From a virus (Duplodnaviria; Heunggongvirae; Uroviricota; Caudoviricetes): a DNA stretch of 36,800 bases. The stretch lies in IMG/VR virus record IMGVR_UViG_2721755498_000005. The stretch is one strand, 5' to 3'. The stretch's first letter is position 1. Each line of letters starts with the position of its first letter. A program made the translations under genes and the position numbers. Below are positions 2,621 through 36,800 of this stretch, one piece after another. Under the pieces are notes generated by a model that worked only from the letters and a program-made list of their open reading frames with translations, had not been told where the DNA came from and did not search any database.

Positions 2621-2732
2621 AACTGAAGTTGCCCTGAAAATGAAATTTTTTTGCACAACCGCAGAACTTTTCCGCAGGGCATCAGTCTTAATTAGTGCCA
2701 CTGCTTTTCTTTGATGTCCCCATTTTGTGGAG

Positions 2733-2775
2733 CCCATCAACCCCGCCATTTCGGTTCAAGGTTGATGGGTTTTTT
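2733..2775 (+). terminator. Rho-independent terminator, probably last host feature before the prophage
   Basis: 10 bp stem cccatcaacc / ggttgatggg followed by TTTTTTGTT on the plus strand. Confidence 0.4.
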
Positions 2776-2855
2776 GTTGTCTGAAATTTAAGCTGTTTAA
2801 AATCATGATGTTAGAAGCACTATTCTTTAACGATGGCGACAAAATGGCGGCAGCG

Positions 2856-25715: not shown

Positions 25716-25746
25716 ACAAAAAGGCCATTAAATGGCCTTTTTGTTT
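25716..25746. terminator. Bidirectional rho-independent terminator between Q and the retron RT
   Basis: aaaaaggccatt aa atggccttttt hairpin with an A-run on one side and a T-run on the other; overlaps the RT stop codon. Confidence 0.5.
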
Positions 25747-26702
25747 TTAGGAAAAAGAACACTTAGATCAACCCCATATGCTTCAGACATTTTATTTGAG
25801 AAAGTCATCAATTTTCTATAGTTTTTCTTGTCTACACTTTTAACAAACGCAATAAGTCCTTTAACATGTTCGAAATCAGAATTTCTTTTTACCGCCAGAT
25901 AATGGATCTTACTTCTAATTTCGCGATAACGTATTCTGCCAACTCCAACATTATCAATAGATAAAACGAGCCCAGTAACCTCCTTCCTTGCTTTGGGGCC
26001 ATGAATCGCAACTTTATTATAATTAACCTTCAAAGATTCACTTGGTATTATAGAGCATACAAATGACTTAGCTTTAAGTATTTTTTTTAAAGATTGAGCA
26101 GATAAAGTCAAATCATCGGCATATCGAGTAAATACGATCCCCTTACTACCTGCATATCCATGTATTCTATAATCTAATTTAGTTAAAACAAGATTCGCAA
26201 TCTTTGGAGAAGATGGTGCACCTTGAGGTAGCGAACCATTAAATGAACACAATCTTGCTAAAGCATTAGAAATAGTAGAGTTATACCCCAGAGAATGAAA
26301 AACAGTATAGATTTTCTCTATCAGAATAGTATTAAAACAATCTTCTAAATCAATATTTAATACATAGTTAGCTCCTACATGTGGGCTGGCATTATTTAAT
26401 ATTGATTGCCCTTTTTCAAAGCCTTTGGAAAATGGGGATGAATGTAACTTATCAAGGATGTTTCTTAACACCCAAGCTTGCAATGCCTTCAGCTCACGTG
26501 ATGGCTGTGAAATGATGCGGGATCTCTTGCCATCTCTTTTTGGCAACGAATAAACCTTATAGTATTTGTCAGCACGATAAATGTACAACCGGAGTATGTC
26601 TACTGATAAACGCATTTCTCTAGACATATCCTCTAAAGAGGACATAACAGGCAATCCAAGATTGCGTAAGCGAAAAACCTGAGATGGTGTTGCGGAAGTC
26701 AT
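25728..26702 (-). CDS. Retron-type reverse transcriptase
   Basis: 324 aa; RT motifs NIDLEDCF and FTRYADDLTLS (YxDD); size like retron RTs; ATG directly after the a2 repeat of the msr-msd. Confidence 0.85.
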   Translation of the reverse strand: MTSATPSQVFRLRNLGLPVMSSLEDMSREMRLSVDILRLYIYRADKYYKVYSLPKRDGKRSRIISQPSRELKALQAWVLRNILDKLHSSPFSKGFEKGQSILNNASPHVGANYVLNIDLEDCFNTILIEKIYTVFHSLGYNSTISNALARLCSFNGSLPQGAPSSPKIANLVLTKLDYRIHGYAGSKGIVFTRYADDLTLSAQSLKKILKAKSFVCSIIPSESLKVNYNKVAIHGPKARKEVTGLVLSIDNVGVGRIRYREIRSKIHYLAVKRNSDFEHVKGLIAFVKSVDKKNYRKLMTFSNKMSEAYGVDLSVLFPKNKKAI

Positions 26703-26866
26703 GAGCGCACCCTTACGTCATAAAAATCAGATTCCGAAGTGAAAGGAGAACATCGGGAGATGTTCTCCTTTCAATGAGGGAACTGGTAAAACTTCAGATT
26801 GTATGTAGGACAGCGAAACACTGTCCAGTGAACTTCCGGAGAAGCCACTCGCTAAGGGTGCGCAAA
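26703..26866 (-). ncRNA. Retron msr-msd non-coding RNA (template for multicopy single-stranded DNA)
   Basis: Flanking 11-13 bp inverted repeats (26705..26717 gcgcacccttacg and 26851..26863 cgtaagggtgcgc) in a1/a2 arrangement; perfect 14 bp stem with 4 nt loop at 26741..26772; minus-strand 5' end TGCGCACCCTTAGCGAG and 3' end GACGTAAGGGTGCGC match my recollection of Ec86. Confidence 0.65.
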
Positions 26867-27763
26867 ACGCATCCTATCATAGTGGAGTATTGTTTTACCA
26901 CGATTTTCGAAGTTCATCATATCCAGTCGTAGATTGTCCAAAGCCTTTCGATCAAAATGCTCAAGAACGTATTGCATACCAATTTCTGTAATATGGTATC
27001 CTTGAACTGAACGCCTAATTATTGACTCTTTAATCAAGCTTGAAATAACAGACTTAACGATAATTTCACAAAGAATAGCATCTTTCTTAGTCACCAAATG
27101 TAATAGCTCATATAGAAGTATATTATCTATACCATCCATCAAATATATACATGGCAGTATAAAACGCCGAGCGTGAAGAATATTATCTATTGAGTGATTA
27201 ACTGGGTTATTTTTTTTGATGTCATTAATACTTTTTATAATTCTATTATAAAAAGCTTTACCTGTACTCAAGCTTTCAAGAGTCGACAAATCTCCTCGCA
27301 ATACTGCACCGCTATTAGCACGCCGAAGCAGTTTTATAGGCCCATAATTAAGAAAGCTTTTTTTAAGTTTGAATTTGTCATCCTGAAGACATATCATTTT
27401 TTTGCACAGTTTTTCATTATTTGAAAATGCGCCCAATTCAGCGAAAGACCCTGGGCTTTCAGGAATAATAATAATAACATCGACTGAATCAGCTAAAATA
27501 TTCTCCAAACTTAAAAGACTATGCTGACCTTGTCCATACAAAAGCTCATCAAACAACTCCTCAGGATAGAATATTTCTATTTTGGGATGTGTTTCCAACA
27601 CTCTTTTAACTTTATTTCTACAAAAAAACGGATCATTCAAATCGCCCCCGCAAAGGAAAACAGTAACTTTATTTTTATTTTTCTGTTGAAAAAGCCGACT
27701 TTTAATTAAATTTGCCAGATTTTGCTTCTGCAACTCCGGAATAGTTTTCTTTTTCATATCCAC
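26852..27763 (-). CDS. Retron effector, nucleoside 2-deoxyribosyltransferase-like (NDT-like) protein
   Basis: 303 aa AT-rich ORF immediately upstream of the msr-msd; motif IIIIPESPGSFAELGAF resembles the NDT catalytic-glutamate motif; stop codon lies inside the a1 repeat. Confidence 0.7.
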   Translation of the reverse strand: MDMKKKTIPELQKQNLANLIKSRLFQQKNKNKVTVFLCGGDLNDPFFCRNKVKRVLETHPKIEIFYPEELFDELLYGQGQHSLLSLENILADSVDVIIIIPESPGSFAELGAFSNNEKLCKKMICLQDDKFKLKKSFLNYGPIKLLRRANSGAVLRGDLSTLESLSTGKAFYNRIIKSINDIKKNNPVNHSIDNILHARRFILPCIYLMDGIDNILLYELLHLVTKKDAILCEIIVKSVISSLIKESIIRRSVQGYHITEIGMQYVLEHFDRKALDNLRLDMMNFENRGKTILHYDRMRFAHP

Positions 27764-27823
27764 TTTTCCTCAGAATGATCCCATCTTTTATACAACATTC
27801 AAATCTGAGTTTCCACCCGCTGC

Positions 27824-27847
27824 GCGCGCTCGTATCCCCGCCACGCC
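27824..27847. other. Putative cos site (cohesive-end region)
   Basis: Minus-strand reading GGCGTGGCGGGGATACGAG matches the first 13 nt of the 186/P2 19-nt cohesive end as I recall it; lies in a GC-rich 244 bp intergenic region. Confidence 0.35.
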
Positions 27848-28007
27848 TGCCCGCTTTATGTAGCGGTTTTCATGCGCCTGCATGACATAAGCAAAATCCC
27901 GCCACTCCTGGCGGGCCTCAGCTAAAACGATCCTCAAACGATCATGCGGATTCATGCGGCATAGACATGCACAATCTCCAAAGCGGGCATCGAGACTTTT
28001 TGGAAAC

Positions 28008-28619
28008 CTACGTAACCACAGTTAATGTGTGCATCCTGTCTCGAATTGCATCACACGTCTCATCAAAAAGCTTGGTGATGGTTGTATGGTTCAACTCCGC
28101 CTCTTTCCAATAATTTTGCCCGTCAAATTCTGGATCGCTATGCTTAAACGATATTGACTCTGAAAGGCATTCCTTCCGGAAACGGTCCAAGATTATATAA
28201 ACCTCTGGTGAGATGAACGGTTTGTTAGATTCAACACTTGTAACAAAAGTGTTAAATGCATCAGAAAAAACTTTCAACCTTCTAAATTTTCTCTCTTCAA
28301 ATGGTTCGTTGGGGTCAACATGATCCAGCGCAGGCCTCAGCTTAAGCACGCTTTCTCTGGTTTCAAACATCGAATTCCAAATGAGACTATATGCTGATAA
28401 CTCCTTATCAAAATACGCTTTCGTTACATAAACAGAATTGTCTAACTTAGCCTTTATTCTTTCATTAGTTGCACTCAGTTGTGATTGAAATTCAGCAATA
28501 TCTTTGTTTAGCCGCGACTTATATCTTTCTAAATAAACTTTCCCGATCCAAACAAATATGCCAGATGCAACAAAAGACACCCCACCCAACGAAGCCAGAA
28601 CTTTAAAGACTAAATCCAT
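28008..28619 (-). CDS. Hypothetical membrane-anchored protein (accessory region next to cos)
   Basis: 203 aa ORF; ATG with GGTGGGGG RBS; N-terminal TM helix then a predicted coiled-coil/soluble domain; no family recognised. Confidence 0.5.
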   Translation of the reverse strand: MDLVFKVLASLGGVSFVASGIFVWIGKVYLERYKSRLNKDIAEFQSQLSATNERIKAKLDNSVYVTKAYFDKELSAYSLIWNSMFETRESVLKLRPALDHVDPNEPFEERKFRRLKVFSDAFNTFVTSVESNKPFISPEVYIILDRFRKECLSESISFKHSDPEFDGQNYWKEAELNHTTITKLFDETCDAIRDRMHTLTVVT

Positions 28620-28667: not shown

Positions 28668-28883
28668 TTAATCAAACAGGGGATAATTCGCGTCAACCTC
28701 ATCACTTCTCTGCTCTACCCTAGTGACTTCCATCAAAAACCCCAGGCCGTCATATAGCGAAACGGGGAATTCCAGCTCAAGCCAGAAGCAGTCTTCATAG
28801 ATGCGGCCCAACCAAAAACCTCCGCCACACTCCTTTGGGCGTTGAAAGAAGACCCAGTCGCCAAGGGTTAAACGTTCCAGCAC
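28668..28883 (-). CDS. Hypothetical small protein (doubtful)
   Basis: 71 aa ORF with GTG start and weak RBS, 48 bp upstream of the 203 aa gene; may be a remnant. Confidence 0.25.
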   Translation of the reverse strand: MLERLTLGDWVFFQRPKECGGGFWLGRIYEDCFWLELEFPVSLYDGLGFLMEVTRVEQRSDEVDANYPLFD

Positions 28884-29001
28884 CTAGCCCCGATAAATAA
28901 TCTGGTGATTACTGTCTTTTTTACCCATGGCTAACGCCTCGCTACTCTCGTTGTTCAACCTTGCTGACGTCAGATTCAAGTTCTTACATCAGGAACGTTC
29001 C

Positions 29002-29235
29002 TTAGTGCAGCCAGCTGTCGTCTTCCCAAACCTGTTGCATAATTTCCATCACCCGCTTTTTGTCTTCATCAAGCTTTAAGCCACTCAGCTCAACGCCGTT
29101 TGCCGACCCTTTACGGATGCGGATAGCGGTCTTGGGATAGATGGGTTGCAGGTTGCGGTAAAGCTCGGACTCCAGAGCGTCCAGGGTAGACTGGCTAATC
29201 TTCTGCTCTTTATCGATCATTATTTCAATGCGCAT
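29002..29235 (-). CDS. DinI-family protein (Tum-like module)
   Basis: 78 aa from the ATG at 29235 (GAGGTGA RBS); MRIEI.I.K......L..L..EL.......P...IR resembles DinI. Confidence 0.7.
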   Translation of the reverse strand: MRIEIMIDKEQKISQSTLDALESELYRNLQPIYPKTAIRIRKGSANGVELSGLKLDEDKKRVMEIMQQVWEDDSWLH

Positions 29236-29245
29236 AAAAGTCACC

Positions 29246-29434
29246 TCAGCTGATGACATCCATTGAGCGGTTGTATTCGTGGCTTCTGATTTTTGCCATG
29301 AGTTCATCAGTCAATTCAGAAACCCACTGCAGGGCCAGCCCCTTCTCTTCATCACTACACTCACTAGCCGCTACAAGCTTAAGAAAAAAATCAATGCGCT
29401 GGAGCTTCAAAGACTCCAAAAAATAGTCCTGCAT
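29246..29434 (-). CDS. Hypothetical small protein, first gene of the LexA-box-controlled operon
   Basis: 62 aa from the ATG at 29434 with AGGAGG RBS; LexA box 44 bp upstream. Confidence 0.45.
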   Translation of the reverse strand: MQDYFLESLKLQRIDFFLKLVAASECSDEEKGLALQWVSELTDELMAKIRSHEYNRSMDVIS

Positions 29435-29477
29435 CTTTCCTCCTATGACACCGCAAACAATACTGTACAGATAACCA

Positions 29478-29493
29478 CTGTTTATATTTACAG
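29478..29493. promoter_or_regulatory. LexA operator (SOS box)
   Basis: ctgtttatatttacag fits CTGT-N8-ACAG with an AT-rich spacer; tatgat/gataat -10-like hexamers adjacent. Confidence 0.55.
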
Positions 29494-29587
29494 TATATGA
29501 TAATCTTACTGATGTAAAACGTTTTTTTACGTTCATCAGCCTGATATGCCTGGTATTATTAAGAGCACGAATTGTTAACCCGCGTAA

Positions 29588-32002
29588 TTAATACAGGTTC
29601 CGCCACTTATCATCTTCCTGCAAACGCTGGTTCCGATAGAAGACACGCAGGCCTGCTCCTGACGGAATACTGCCGCCGCGAAGGAGTAAATCGACCTCTT
29701 TCTCGCTGCCATCAAATCCTCTGGACTTCAGTTCATAGACGAGCTGCTGTCGTTGATGGTCTGTAATTCGCTGTTTGTAGTCTCTACGCCGTTTCGGTTT
29801 CACCAGGCGTAACCTTGCAGCCAGTTCCCGGCGCTCTTTTTTGTTCATACTGTGCAGGTAATCGTGCAACTCCTTGTCATCCATGTGGGTAATGTCCGTT
29901 CTGGTATCCCCATCAGCTGATTTGTCTTTCCCTTGTTGGTTCAAATTTTCAGCAAGGGGACAGTTATTGCCACGAGTCCAAGGGGCGCAAGCGCCCTGGT
30001 CGGCTGCCGCCTCCTGAACGTCAACGGCTTTACGAACCATTTTCCACTTCACTGCATGAGTGCAGATCTTGCCCTCTGCAATGGGTGACCAGATGCCATA
30101 AATACGAATGCCGTGATCGCCATAGGCGGTCGGCTCTTCGTTGATTTCATAAGCGGTTCTGATGAGGTGATATTTACGGGGAACCAGTACGCCGCCCTGC
30201 TTCATGATGTAGGTGGCAAAACAACCAGCATCAGCAGCAGCCAGGATGGCATCAAGGCGCGGGTTATCCAGTACCGGCGCACCTGCTTTTTTGTCCCCCT
30301 TTTGCCTTACCGCCTGACCAGCCAGCAATCGCAGTTCACGGTAAGCCTGACGCCCCGGAATGCCAAAGAAGCGGAATTGCTGAACACGATGCAAAGACGC
30401 CCAGGCATTCACGTATTCAGCGTTATCACGCAGAGATTTACCCGTTTCCTTGCTGATCTCGCCAGCCAGACCACGCCCGTCAATGTTCTTACTGATGTAT
30501 TTCGCTATGTAGCTTGTCGGCGTTCCTTTGCGCGGGTTAATCAGCTCAGACTTAAAGCGCGGCCCCGTGTTATTGCCCAGCTCCTCGCGGTCTTCACGGA
30601 TAGCAAACTTACGCAACAATGCTGTAATGGCGCGGCGGTCTTTTTTGCGCATGAAACACAACAGGTGCCAGTGAACTGTGCCGTCGTGATGCGGCTCAGC
30701 CACCCGCACGCCATACCAGCGCAACCCGGCTTTGTGCATCGCCTTACGAAATGCAGCAAACATACCGACCAGATAATCGCTGCTTTGTCTTACCGTCGCA
30801 TTTGTCCAGGTCGGGTTGGGCCTGCCGTTATTTAGCGTGGAATGGAAACGTGACGGACAGGTGATGGTGTAGAAAACGGCGCAGTCACCGCGCATTTCCG
30901 CGATAAGCTCCAGACCTTTAACACAGGCCATCATCTCATTGCGGCGATGCGCAGGGTTGCTGCTGCTGGCGTTTACCACATCCTCCATGTCTAGCGTGTC
31001 GCCGTCTTCGTTCACCAGTTCATGAGAACGGAAAAACTCCAGCGACTTACGGCGCTGCTCACGTTTATGCAACACGGCTTCATAGCTGACATAGGGAGAT
31101 GCTTTTTTGCTGACAAGGCAGACAGCACGCAACTGCTCTTCCCGCCATTCGCAACGCATCTTCCATAATTTCCGATACCACCAGTCGGCGCACAACATAC
31201 GCGCCAGCGAACCCGGAATGAGTTCATAGGGCACGGGTTTACGGCGGTTTCTTTTCCGACGGAGTTGCTCAAACGCAGGCGGGATGACATCCAGACGCAG
31301 GGTTTCCGCTGCCACCCTTTCCCATGTATTGCGGATTTCTTCTGGCTTAACGTCATCGGTGGCATACAAATCGCCACAAGCGGCATCAAGGCACATACTC
31401 ATATGCGCAGCTACCAGGGTGGACAGGCGTTTCACCTGATCCTGACTCATTTCAGGCAGGATCAGCAGGCCGTCCAGCCCTTCATGGCTTGCCATAAAGC
31501 GAAAAGATGCAGATAGCTGACTGTCGCGTACATGCTCCAGTCGTTCCAGACATGGCTTAATCGTCTCACGTAAATAGCGGGAATAAGCCTTTGGCCTGCC
31601 CAGGCTGCTGAAGTATTCAATACGTTGCATCAGCGGCTTGCTGATATGGGAAGGCTGGGCGTTGACGTCCGCCAGAATGACCATATCCGGATTAAAACGC
31701 TGCTGCTCATGCGCCAGCTTTGCCCGACTAATGAGCTTATCCTGTTCCATTTCGCGCTGGACAGGATCACGGGATTCATTAAAGAAATAACGCTCCCAGA
31801 CCTGATCACTCAGCGCCTCACGGCGCAGCTGTTCCTGCTCGTTATCGGCAGCGTACAGAGTGATCAGGTTTGAAAGCGTAGAAACCGGCGCAACTTCCAC
31901 CGGGTCCAGATAAGGGTTAATGGCCTTTTTCGAGCTGTTCCATGAGAACGATGCGGCAGCTTCGTTAAAGCCGCAGCAGTTGTTCATATCGGCATGACTC
32001 AT
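29588..32002 (-). CDS. A: Replication initiation endonuclease gpA (rolling-circle)
   Basis: 804 aa with the active-site tyrosine motif [12 protein letters not shown]. Confidence 0.85.
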
Positions 32003-34657: not shown

Positions 34658-34782
34658 GATGCAACATTCCTCGTTTAATGATGATTAATCAGGACGAATA
34701 CGGATCGTTTGTATTTTGTGAACACCATAAACATACGATCGCACGGTGAAATCGTCAAGATAAAAGTTCACTTGGAGTGACC
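34658..34782. promoter_or_regulatory. Lysis-lysogeny switch region (pR/pL and operators) between apl and cI
   Basis: 125 bp AT-rich divergent intergenic region with partial dyads containing CGATCG; by analogy with the 186 switch. Confidence 0.4.
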
Positions 34783-35352
34783 ATGAATTTGGAGAAAGGC
34801 GGACGAGGCGCCATAGAGCGCATGGTAGAAGCTTATGGATTCAAGACTCGACAGGCGTTGTGCGATCATTTAGGAATCTCTAAAAGTACACTCGCCACAC
34901 GCTACATGCGTGACTCATTCCCAGCAGAATGGGTAATCCAGTGCGCCCTTGAAACAGGCACCTCGCTTAATTGGCTCACAACCGGGCATGGTTCAAAGCA
35001 AACTTCAGGTAATACAAATACTATGGAAGTTGCTAAATATGTATTATCTGATGGGGCCTTGTGTGAAGACGGTTTTTATATTTTCGATAGAGAATTTCTA
35101 CCGTCGGCATTCAAGAATCTTTTTGTAATCACAGATAATAATTCTGAATTTATTTGTGATAAGGAATTTGATGATATACGTGATGGTAAATGGGTAATAA
35201 GTATTGATGGCGAAATAACGATCCGTGACATTACTCGTTTACCCGGTGGAAGAATCTTCGTCGAGGGTGGAAACAGAGCCTTTGAATGTAAGATAGAAGA
35301 CATTGAAATAATTGGTAAAATTATAAGTTTAACAGTCAAGTATGTTAAATAG
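34783..35352 (+). CDS. cI: CI immunity repressor (186 type)
   Basis: 189 aa from the ATG at 34783 (GGAG RBS); EAYGF...L..H..I..S.LS.RY.R....AE.VI.CALETG..L.WL.TG and C-terminus resemble 186 CI. Confidence 0.8.
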   Translation: MNLEKGGRGAIERMVEAYGFKTRQALCDHLGISKSTLATRYMRDSFPAEWVIQCALETGTSLNWLTTGHGSKQTSGNTNTMEVAKYVLSDGALCEDGFYIFDREFLPSAFKNLFVITDNNSEFICDKEFDDIRDGKWVISIDGEITIRDITRLPGGRIFVEGGNRAFECKIEDIEIIGKIISLTVKYVK

Positions 35353-35367
35353 TACCGGGAGGAAATT

Positions 35368-35559
35368 ATGCTTGGTAAGGTATTTTTTGTGGTTTTGTCA
35401 TGTTCTTTGTTATTAAACCCACTAGCTACCTATGCTAGAAATTATCCCTGCTCAGGGAAAAAGGGAGGTGTTTCTCACTGTACCTCTGATGGCAAATTCG
35501 TTTGCAATGATGGAACTATTAGTAAATCCAAAAAAATCTGTACTAAAAACTCACGATAA
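35368..35559 (+). CDS. Hypothetical small secreted Cys-containing protein (moron between cI and int)
   Basis: 63 aa, strong GGGAGG RBS, predicted signal peptide, five Cys; AT-rich. Confidence 0.4.
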
Positions 35560-35747
35560 CTTTTGCTTTTATATCTGCGCCTAAAATAAAAATGAGCCAC
35601 AGGTTAACCGCAAAAGTTACATGATCACATAGCAAAAAGAATAGCCTACTTCATTATGGCTTCAGTGAGATGTATGGTCGCAGGATTTCATACATTGACA
35701 CTGGTTATACATACAGTAAAAATGCTCTCTATTGGAGGGCATTTTTT

Positions 35748-36800
35748 ATGGCTGTACGAAAACTCACCACAGGAAAATGGCTTTGCGAATGTTACCCCGC
35801 CGGACGTAGTGGGCGTCGTGTGCGTAAACAATTCGCCACCAAAGGCGAAGCACTGGCTTTTGAGCGTCACACGATGGAAGAAACCGAAGCAAAGCCCTGG
35901 CTAGGTGAATCAGTGGATCGTCGAACACTGAAAGACGTGGTTGAGCTATGGTTCAAACTACATGGTAAATCACTGACTGCTGGGCAGCATGTCTATGACA
36001 AATTGCTGCTGATGGTTGACGCTCTGGGCAATCCCCTTGCAACTGATCTAACCTCTAAAATGTTTGCCCACTATCGAGATAAACGCCTGACAGGTGAGAT
36101 CTACTTCAGCGAGAAATGGAAGAAAGGAGCAAGCCCGGTCACCATTAACCTGGAGCAAAGCTATCTAAGTAGTGTTTTTAGCGAACTATCCCGCCTGGGC
36201 GAATGGTCGTATCCGAACCCACTGGAGAACATGCGAAAATTCACCATCGCAGAAAAAGAGATGGCATGGCTTACCCATGAGCAGATTGTTGAATTACTGG
36301 CTGATTGCAAACGTCAGGACCCAATTCTGGCACTGGTAGTTAAGATATGCTTAAGCACAGGCGCACGCTGGCGAGAAGCCGTAAATCTTACTCGTTCACA
36401 GGTGACCAAATACCGAATTACCTTTGTAAGAACGAAGGGGAAGAAAAACAGAAGCATCCCTATCAGTAAAGAGCTTTACGAAGAGATCATGGCGCTTGAT
36501 GGGTTCAATTTCTTCACAGACTGCTATTTTCAATTTTTATCCGTGATGGAAAAAACGTCTATCGTGCTCCCTCGCGGTCAACTCACACACGTTCTGCGCC
36601 ATACGTTTGCGGCGCACTTCATGATGTCGGGTGGAAACATTCTGGCCTTACAAAAAATTCTCGGACACCACGATATAAAAATGACTATGCGTTACGCACA
36701 TCTGGCACCGGATCATCTGGAAACGGCGCTCCGTTTCAATCCTCTGGCAACGCTGCCAAGTGGCGACAAAGTGGCGGCAGCGGTTGGCATTACCCCGTAA
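35748..36800 (+). CDS. int: Tyrosine integrase (P2/186 family)
   Basis: 350 aa from the ATG at 35748 (GGAGGG RBS); conserved C-terminal catalytic region (..LSTGARW.EA, HVLRHTFA..F, MRYAHLAP); stop at 36798..36800. Confidence 0.85.
   Translation: MAVRKLTTGKWLCECYPAGRSGRRVRKQFATKGEALAFERHTMEETEAKPWLGESVDRRTLKDVVELWFKLHGKSLTAGQHVYDKLLLMVDALGNPLATDLTSKMFAHYRDKRLTGEIYFSEKWKKGASPVTINLEQSYLSSVFSELSRLGEWSYPNPLENMRKFTIAEKEMAWLTHEQIVELLADCKRQDPILALVVKICLSTGARWREAVNLTRSQVTKYRITFVRTKGKKNRSIPISKELYEEIMALDGFNFFTDCYFQFLSVMEKTSIVLPRGQLTHVLRHTFAAHFMMSGGNILALQKILGHHDIKMTMRYAHLAPDHLETALRFNPLATLPSGDKVAAAVGITP

Follow-up and report, generated by a model that had tools for sequence, protein, structure and literature searches.

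A split Tum-type SOS-induction module in a 186/Fels-2-type prophage of Escherichia coli, with a candidate second LexA-box promoter upstream of the integrase gene

We find that two small minus-strand genes in a 36,800-nt stretch of viral DNA (the window, i.e. the whole stretch that was analysed) most probably serve as the SOS-induction module of a P2-like prophage (Peduoviridae) of the 186/Fels-2 type, located beside ybjL and rybB in E. coli, with the upstream gene (ORF1) encoding the antirepressor and the downstream gene (ORF2) a DinI paralogue; we assign this reading a probability of roughly 90%. For the window it builds on sequence, homology, operator conservation and identity to genes that have been studied experimentally, and LexA dependence as well as the requirement for tum are taken from the literature on the identical system. 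The split Tum module as such is already documented, and the system is a known and common one: among 5426 complete E. coli genomes, 1125 (~21%) carry the tum module.

Prophage and gene layout

The window contains a P2-family prophage of the 186/Fels-2 type, which is encoded mostly on the minus strand. Its host flank carries ybjL (561 aa ORF, 935-2620) and marks the same chromosomal site as that of the prophage DuoHS of E. coli HS. The SOS module starts just downstream of the replication endonuclease gene A, and the order of gene A followed by the SOS module is common to 186, PSP3, Fels-2, Cartapus and DuoHS. The relevant features are as follows:

2700-2778, plus strand: host sRNA RybB (Rfam RF00110, 105 bits), flanked by ybjL on one side and by the ogr end of the prophage on the other
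29002..29235, minus strand: ORF2, 77 aa, TumB, DinI family (Pfam DinI PF06183)
29241..29247, minus strand: GAGGTGA, ribosome-binding site of ORF2, overlapping the ORF1 stop codon TGA (29246-29248)
29246..29434, minus strand: ORF1, 62 aa, predicted TumA-type antirepressor and helical hairpin, homologous at the profile level to the N-terminal half of 186 Tum
29439..29444, minus strand: AGGAGG, Shine-Dalgarno sequence of ORF1, 4 nt before the ATG at 29434
29476..29495 (core 29478-29493), no strand assigned: predicted LexA operator TACTGTAAATATAAACAGTG, whose left arm TACTGT (29490-29495) is also the putative -10 element
29513..29518, minus strand: TTTACA, putative -35 element of the SOS promoter (5/6 match to TTGACA), 17 nt from TACTGT
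29588..32002, minus strand: replication endonuclease gene A (Pfam Phage_GPA, E 1.6e-127)

The first-pass annotation had described a 62 aa ORF behind a strong AGGAGG ribosome-binding site, and both were recovered on the minus strand (29246..29434 and 29444..29439, respectively). For the second gene it had given a DinI-family ORF of 78 aa; the family assignment holds (86.1 bits), but the protein is 77 aa long, the 78th codon being the stop. ORF1 and ORF2 lie in different reading frames with 10 nt between the ORF1 stop and the ORF2 ATG (29235), and from this arrangement we infer that the two genes may be translationally coupled. No intrinsic terminator was found after ORF2, and the SOS transcript may therefore continue past ORF2 into the downstream ORFs. 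Thus, of the proposed two-gene operon ending in a DinI-family gene, the two genes and their order stand, but the operon need not end there. In phage 186, tum is followed by a partial terminator and orf97, which is partly reached by the p95 transcripts, whereas in the window no such terminator was found. For this reason the 203 aa ORF that separates the tum module from the retron (28008-28619, minus strand), a member of phrog_26391 without a match in Pfam or PADLOC, may share the SOS-controlled transcript, by analogy with 186 orf97.

The region downstream of the module holds further cargo. At 28668-28928 on the minus strand we observed a counterpart of Cartapus gp46 (86 aa, phrog_2100), which follows the DinI gene in that phage; the window copy has an in-frame TAG at codon 15 (28884-28886), a position occupied by CAG in Cartapus, which makes it a pseudogene unless translation starts again at the GTG that comes next. 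A type II-A retron (25728-27763, minus strand) forms variable cargo between the tum module and the portal gene Q and consists of the following genes:

25728-26702, minus strand: retron reverse transcriptase (PADLOC RT_II-A, E 4.9e-123; Pfam RVT_1)
26852-27763, minus strand: retron NDT-like effector (PADLOC NDT_II-A, E 2.6e-97)

Its msr-msd RNA is expected at about 27764-28000; a whole-window Rfam scan at gathering thresholds reported RybB alone. DuoHS differs from the window in this region, carrying two other hypothetical genes after its DinI gene in place of the two small ORFs and the type II-A retron.

The predicted LexA operator and SOS promoter

A LexA operator core had been proposed at 29478..29493, 44 bp upstream of the 62 aa ORF. 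It is present as described, with the box ending 44 nt before the ATG, and reads CTGTAAATATAAACAG on the minus strand (29493..29478). The bare core motif (CTGT-N8-ACAG) occurs once in the window compared to 0.40 expected occurrences, and at least one copy was found in 36 of 100 shuffled sequences. Therefore the core does not reach significance by itself, in contrast to the full 20-mer TACTGTAAATATAAACAGTG (29495..29476). The latter agrees with the consensus TACTGTATATATATACAGTA at 17 of 20 positions and has a heterology index of 4.9, with training sites spanning 1.8-12.4 and the best of 30 shuffled windows reaching 10.75 (the weight matrix is an approximate one based on E. coli SOS boxes, and all heterology indices given here are approximate as well). 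An apparent second half-site 3' of the box (CTGTACAG, 29463-29470) was rejected with a poor index of 12.5, and its pairing with the 186/PSP3 box in a MAFFT alignment was treated as an alignment artefact.

The operator had also been described as overlapping a promoter-like region, and this is borne out by the arrangement of the elements: the putative -10 element TACTGT (29495..29490) forms the left arm of the LexA box, as it does in the annotated p95 promoter of 186, where TTCACA, an 18-nt spacer and TACTGT parallel the TTTACA, 17 nt and TACTGT of the window. A generic sigma-70 promoter scan called no promoter at the tum module, because TACTGT matches the -10 consensus at only 3 of 6 positions. 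The LexA box is identical in the window, DuoHS of E. coli HS, Fels-2 and Cartapus, the tum promoter is identical in the Fels-2 group as well, and the Shine-Dalgarno sequence is likewise conserved. To this can be added 20 diverged loci of other Enterobacterales, collected by a profile search with a narrower ORF1-family alignment and encoding ORF1 relatives that are ~40-46% identical: a CTG-N10-CAG box is located 32-54 nt before the start in 17 of them, and one further locus has a LexA box with a one-base deletion.

It could be argued that the palindrome is not a working operator and that the genes are expressed constitutively or by read-through from the early lytic operon after gene A. Indeed, chance would place 0.4 copies of the bare core motif in a window, and the interval from gene A to the box yielded no strong terminator. 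However, none of the shuffles comes near the score of the 20-mer, the box is the same in Fels-2, DuoHS and Cartapus and has been kept upstream of diverged homologues, and the identical DuoHS system needs a cleavable LexA for induction (PMC12055606), which leaves this explanation very improbable. Taken together, the 20-mer represents a strong and conserved predicted LexA operator that overlaps the promoter of the module. From the sequence we predict that LexA represses the tum promoter, and the behaviour of the lexA(Ind-) strain in the DuoHS system supports this prediction.

ORF1, a TumA-type protein

ORF1 is 100% identical to ECHS_RS04495 of E. coli HS, the gene named 'tum' in prophage DuoHS, and it shares 96.8% identity with Fels-2 STM2728 and the RE2010 protein and 90.3% with the SopEPhi protein. 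DuoHS (tum ECHS_RS04495, DinI-like gene ECHS_RS04500) has the LexA box, the position after gene A and the chromosomal site (rcdA...ybjL) in common with the window. In E. coli HS, deletion of tum or a lexA(Ind-) background results in neither lysis nor virions after mitomycin C (PMC12055606). The window CI repressor is also 100% identical to that of DuoHS; therefore the repressor/antirepressor pair of the window is the pair that was tested in that study. The first-pass suggestion that the prophage is SOS-inducible via an antirepressor agrees with these experiments, in which deletion of the identical ORF1 gene abolished induction.

Alignment to 186 Tum had been proposed as a check and gave a divided result: ORF2 aligned readily (43% identity to residues 71-145, E 2e-25), but BLASTP returned no hit between ORF1 and 186 Tum, and the relationship of ORF1 emerged only with an HMM of the ORF1 family (31 diverse relatives), which matches residues 6-48 of Tum with 34.9 bits. 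BLASTP likewise detected no similarity between ORF1 and PSP3 TumA or between PSP3 TumA and 186 Tum, and the ORF1-family HMM scores PSP3 TumA at 4.2 bits only. Among the PHROG profiles ORF1 belongs to phrog_698 (E 5.9e-38; phrog_1993, E 0.002) and PSP3 TumA to phrog_1993, while 186 Tum matches both (phrog_698, E 2.7e-5; phrog_1993, E 1.4e-22), and cross-hits among phrog_698, phrog_8554 and phrog_1993 tie ORF1 to the N-terminal half of Tum. ORF1 is thus homologous to the N-terminal half of 186 Tum, at the profile level only. Together with the match of ORF2 to residues 71-145 and the split precedents of PSP3 and Fels-2, this upholds the first-pass description of a Tum-like SOS module divided into two small proteins.

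No Pfam, NCBIfam or PADLOC family was assigned to ORF1, and its profile found no relative among solved structures. An AlphaFold2 model (pLDDT 87) predicts a two-helix hairpin with helices at residues 2-23 and 28-61. A word-indexed protein search gave ORF1 relatives of >80% identity only, and the diversity for the profile was supplied by an exhaustive search of representatives, which identified 67 clusters related to ORF1, all of them short proteins and none (0/67) with a C-terminal DinI fusion. Many distant relatives carry a glycine-rich C-terminal tail (KNPQxGGxxGGxxLQ), which is missing from the ORF1 of the window.

The absence of such fusions also bears on a programmed frameshift that would join ORF1 and ORF2 into one 186-like Tum polypeptide. 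Both parts are indeed a single protein in 186, and the ORF2 frame is open upstream to 29307, so that it overlaps the 3' end of ORF1. However, a +1 shift would be required, the sequence offers no obvious slippery motif, and ORF2 is equipped with a ribosome-binding site and ATG for itself; we consider this origin of a fused product exceedingly improbable and rejected it on account of the lacking slippery site and the separate ribosome-binding site. We thus retain two separately translated proteins as the preferred reading.

In 18 of the 20 diverged tumA-like loci a DinI-like gene is absent from the ~500 nt downstream, and most of these loci keep the LexA box, which argues that the small upstream (TumA) protein is the core of the module. 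A 60 aa 'tum protein' of a Yersinia phage also has no DinI gene right downstream.

ORF2, a DinI-family protein

ORF2 matches Pfam DinI PF06183 over the entire profile (positions 1-63 of 63) with E 2e-24 and 86.1 bits (cutoff 24.2), belongs to phrog_189 (E 1.6e-30) and is identical to PSP3 TumB at 71 of 77 residues (counted by eye); PADLOC gave no match. It aligns over its full length with the structure of E. coli DinI (1GHH/7YWA, E 2e-9), including the acidic C-terminal helix and conserved W residues, and by this similarity it may bind RecA filaments. With the NCBIfam DinI equivalog NF007893, ORF2 reached 53.7 bits and stayed below the cutoff of 111; since it does so, we regard it as a phage paralogue of DinI and not as an orthologue of host DinI.

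An alternative view is that the DinI-like ORF2 triggers induction, e.g. via RecA or CI, and that ORF1 is accessory or unrelated. This would fit with ORF2 being the only half that is functionally annotated in databases, and with the shorter Tum products of 186, which correspond to the DinI part and are annotated as modulating SOS induction. Moreover, in the DuoHS tum deletion the start codon of tum was joined directly to its stop codon (PMC12055606), and because this stop overlaps the ribosome-binding site of the DinI-like gene close behind it, less of the DinI-like protein might be translated; the deletion could thus be polar on ORF2 and does not strictly separate the two proteins. On the other hand, it is the upstream gene to which antirepressor activity is ascribed in PSP3 (known second-hand, from a personal communication quoted in PMC3121763), non-polar dinI deletions in the Gifsy prophages caused no significant change in induction (PMC3121763), ORF1 matches the non-DinI half of 186 Tum, and the diverged loci described above mostly lack a DinI-like gene altogether within the distance considered. 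We therefore judge a triggering role of ORF2 to be improbable and maintain ORF1 as the antirepressor. The first-pass picture of a DinI-like antirepressor module is accordingly kept with respect to the split antirepressor, but the antirepressor part is ORF1 and not the DinI-like ORF2.

The CI repressor and its pairing with TumA

The presumed target of ORF1 is encoded on the opposite strand:

34777..35352, plus strand: 186-type CI immunity repressor, presumed ORF1 target (the start annotated in E. coli HS is the ATG at 34783)

The protein contains the Pfam domains Phage_CI_repr and Phage_CI_C, and no S24 peptidase domain was detected by Pfam. It is 33% identical to 186 CI overall, with 39% identity in the N-terminal HTH domain and 26% elsewhere. 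When the CI proteins of phages with a TumA 85-98% identical to ORF1 were compared, conservation proved to be unevenly distributed: these repressors are only 38-56% identical to the window CI overall, and their N-terminal HTH domain is conserved to 61-77% compared to 23-40% for the linker and C-terminal domain. Likewise, the CI proteins of the Fels-2 group are ~41-43% identical to that of the window overall and 68-76% in the HTH domain. This pattern suggests that TumA may recognise the DNA-binding (N-terminal HTH) domain of CI.

Between cI and int lies a 63 aa ORF (35368-35559, plus strand; phrog_6000) with a signal-peptide-like N-terminus and several cysteines; relatives hold nothing or another gene at this spot.

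A second LexA box and a hairpin upstream of int

A further LexA box was found in front of the integrase gene, together with a potential RNA hairpin:

35695..35723, plus strand: predicted second LexA-box promoter (TTGACA, a 17-nt spacer holding CTGGTTATACATACAG at 35701-35716, AAAAAT)
35718-35747, plus strand: terminator-like hairpin AAAAATGCTCTC-TATT-GGAGGGCATTTTT, located after the LexA box of int and ahead of its ATG
35748-36800, plus strand: int, with the promoter 25 nt upstream of its ATG

The int box CACTGGTTATACATACAGTA (35699-35718) is a strong one, with a heterology index of 4.5 (same approximate matrix), and is located exactly in the 17-nt spacer of a near-consensus promoter. We collected 160 viral contigs with this integrase type, which yielded 58 distinct upstream sequences; the CTG-N10-CAG pattern is kept in all of them (58/58) and at the same place after a conserved ACATTGA, with 23 different 16-mers represented and with unrelated DNA further upstream. 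In Fels-2, unlike in the window, int abuts cI and has no LexA-box promoter.

The hairpin is similarly widespread, as it was recovered by per-sequence folding in 31 of 31 distinct leaders between the int box and the ATG (in the MAFFT leader alignment used for RNAalifold the hairpin types were out of register and the consensus was weak, for which reason the sequences were folded individually). The stems differ between leaders (GCTCTC/GAGGGC, GCCCTC/GAGGGC, GTCCTC/GAGGAC, ACCCC/GGGGT and CTCTCCTAA/TTAGGAGAG), and the changes are apparently compensating. Leaders of the window type and of the GCCCTC type have a T-run after the hairpin and before the ATG. The 3' arm holds the Shine-Dalgarno sequence of int; the 5' arm overlaps the -10 element and contains the predicted start of transcription. 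Read-through transcripts from the cI operon would be terminated at the hairpin, or their ribosome-binding site would be occluded; SOS-initiated int transcripts would start inside the 5' arm, escape the hairpin and be translatable. The conserved int box suggests that integrase expression may be SOS-induced. No description of the int LexA box and hairpin was found in the literature searched, and the promoter is possibly undescribed.

Comparison with known systems

Tum of 186 has been described as resembling an antirepressor fused to DinI, with Fels-2 and PSP3 carrying tum in two halves (PMC3121763). 186 and the window are alike in the LexA box over the TACTGT -10 element, the position after gene A and the 186-type CI; they differ in that 186 Tum is a single 146 aa polypeptide with internal starts and the window has two separate genes. 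In Fels-2 (STM2728/STM2726.1), and also in SopEPhi and RE2010, the module is split into two genes after gene A as in the window. PSP3 is the precedent in which the two halves bear names of their own: its record is annotated with tumA/tumB, tumA being the antirepressor gene in the upstream position and tumB the DinI homologue behind it; its TumA subfamily (phrog_1993) shows only weak profile similarity to that of ORF1 (phrog_698), and its two genes are in the same frame with a stop codon between them, whereas those of the window are in different frames. The LexA-repressed dinI-gfoA/gftA/gfhA operons of Gifsy-1/2/3 resemble the window in combining a dinI homologue with a small antirepressor against a non-cleavable repressor (PMC3121763); however, they belong to lambdoid phages and have the reversed order with dinI first, and they are likened to the window by description only. 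The module occurs in three architectures: fused (186), split (PSP3, Fels-2 and the window) and TumA alone (18/20 diverged loci and the Yersinia phage).

Discussion

The data are consistent with the following course of events. In the lysogen, host LexA would occupy the 29476-29495 operator overlapping the -10 element and keep the promoter shut. Upon DNA damage RecA would be activated, LexA would cleave itself, and the promoter would fire, so that the two small proteins are made. ORF1, the 62 aa helical hairpin, would then bind the non-self-cleaving 186-type CI and take it off its operators, which would release the early lytic promoter. Inactivation of CI through binding is established for 186 Tum, which binds CI as cited in PMC3121763, and is proposed for ORF1 by analogy. 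ORF2 most likely binds RecA filaments and may adjust how strong the SOS signal is or how long it lasts; for derepression itself it is probably dispensable. We infer a direct contact between TumA and CI, the N-terminal domain of CI as its target and the role of TumB.

As a broader reading, the prophage might possess a two-promoter SOS regulon (tum and int) with a hairpin-gated int and a TumA that targets the CI HTH domain with possible cross-induction; we put this combination forward tentatively and place it somewhat short of even odds. If TumA targets the HTH domain, it could cross-induce P2-like prophages with a CI that is diverged elsewhere.

The sole gap left by the tum finding is the annotation of the antirepressor. 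ORF1 is labelled 'hypothetical protein' in RefSeq and 'unknown function' in PHROGs, even though a role has been demonstrated for an identical gene. As the antirepressor is unannotated, automated prophage analyses miss the actual induction switch. It depends on the tum module whether the prophage is woken by DNA damage (antibiotics, colibactin, UV). If confirmed, the LexA-controlled int promoter would subject excision to a further SOS input and would matter more than the tum finding.
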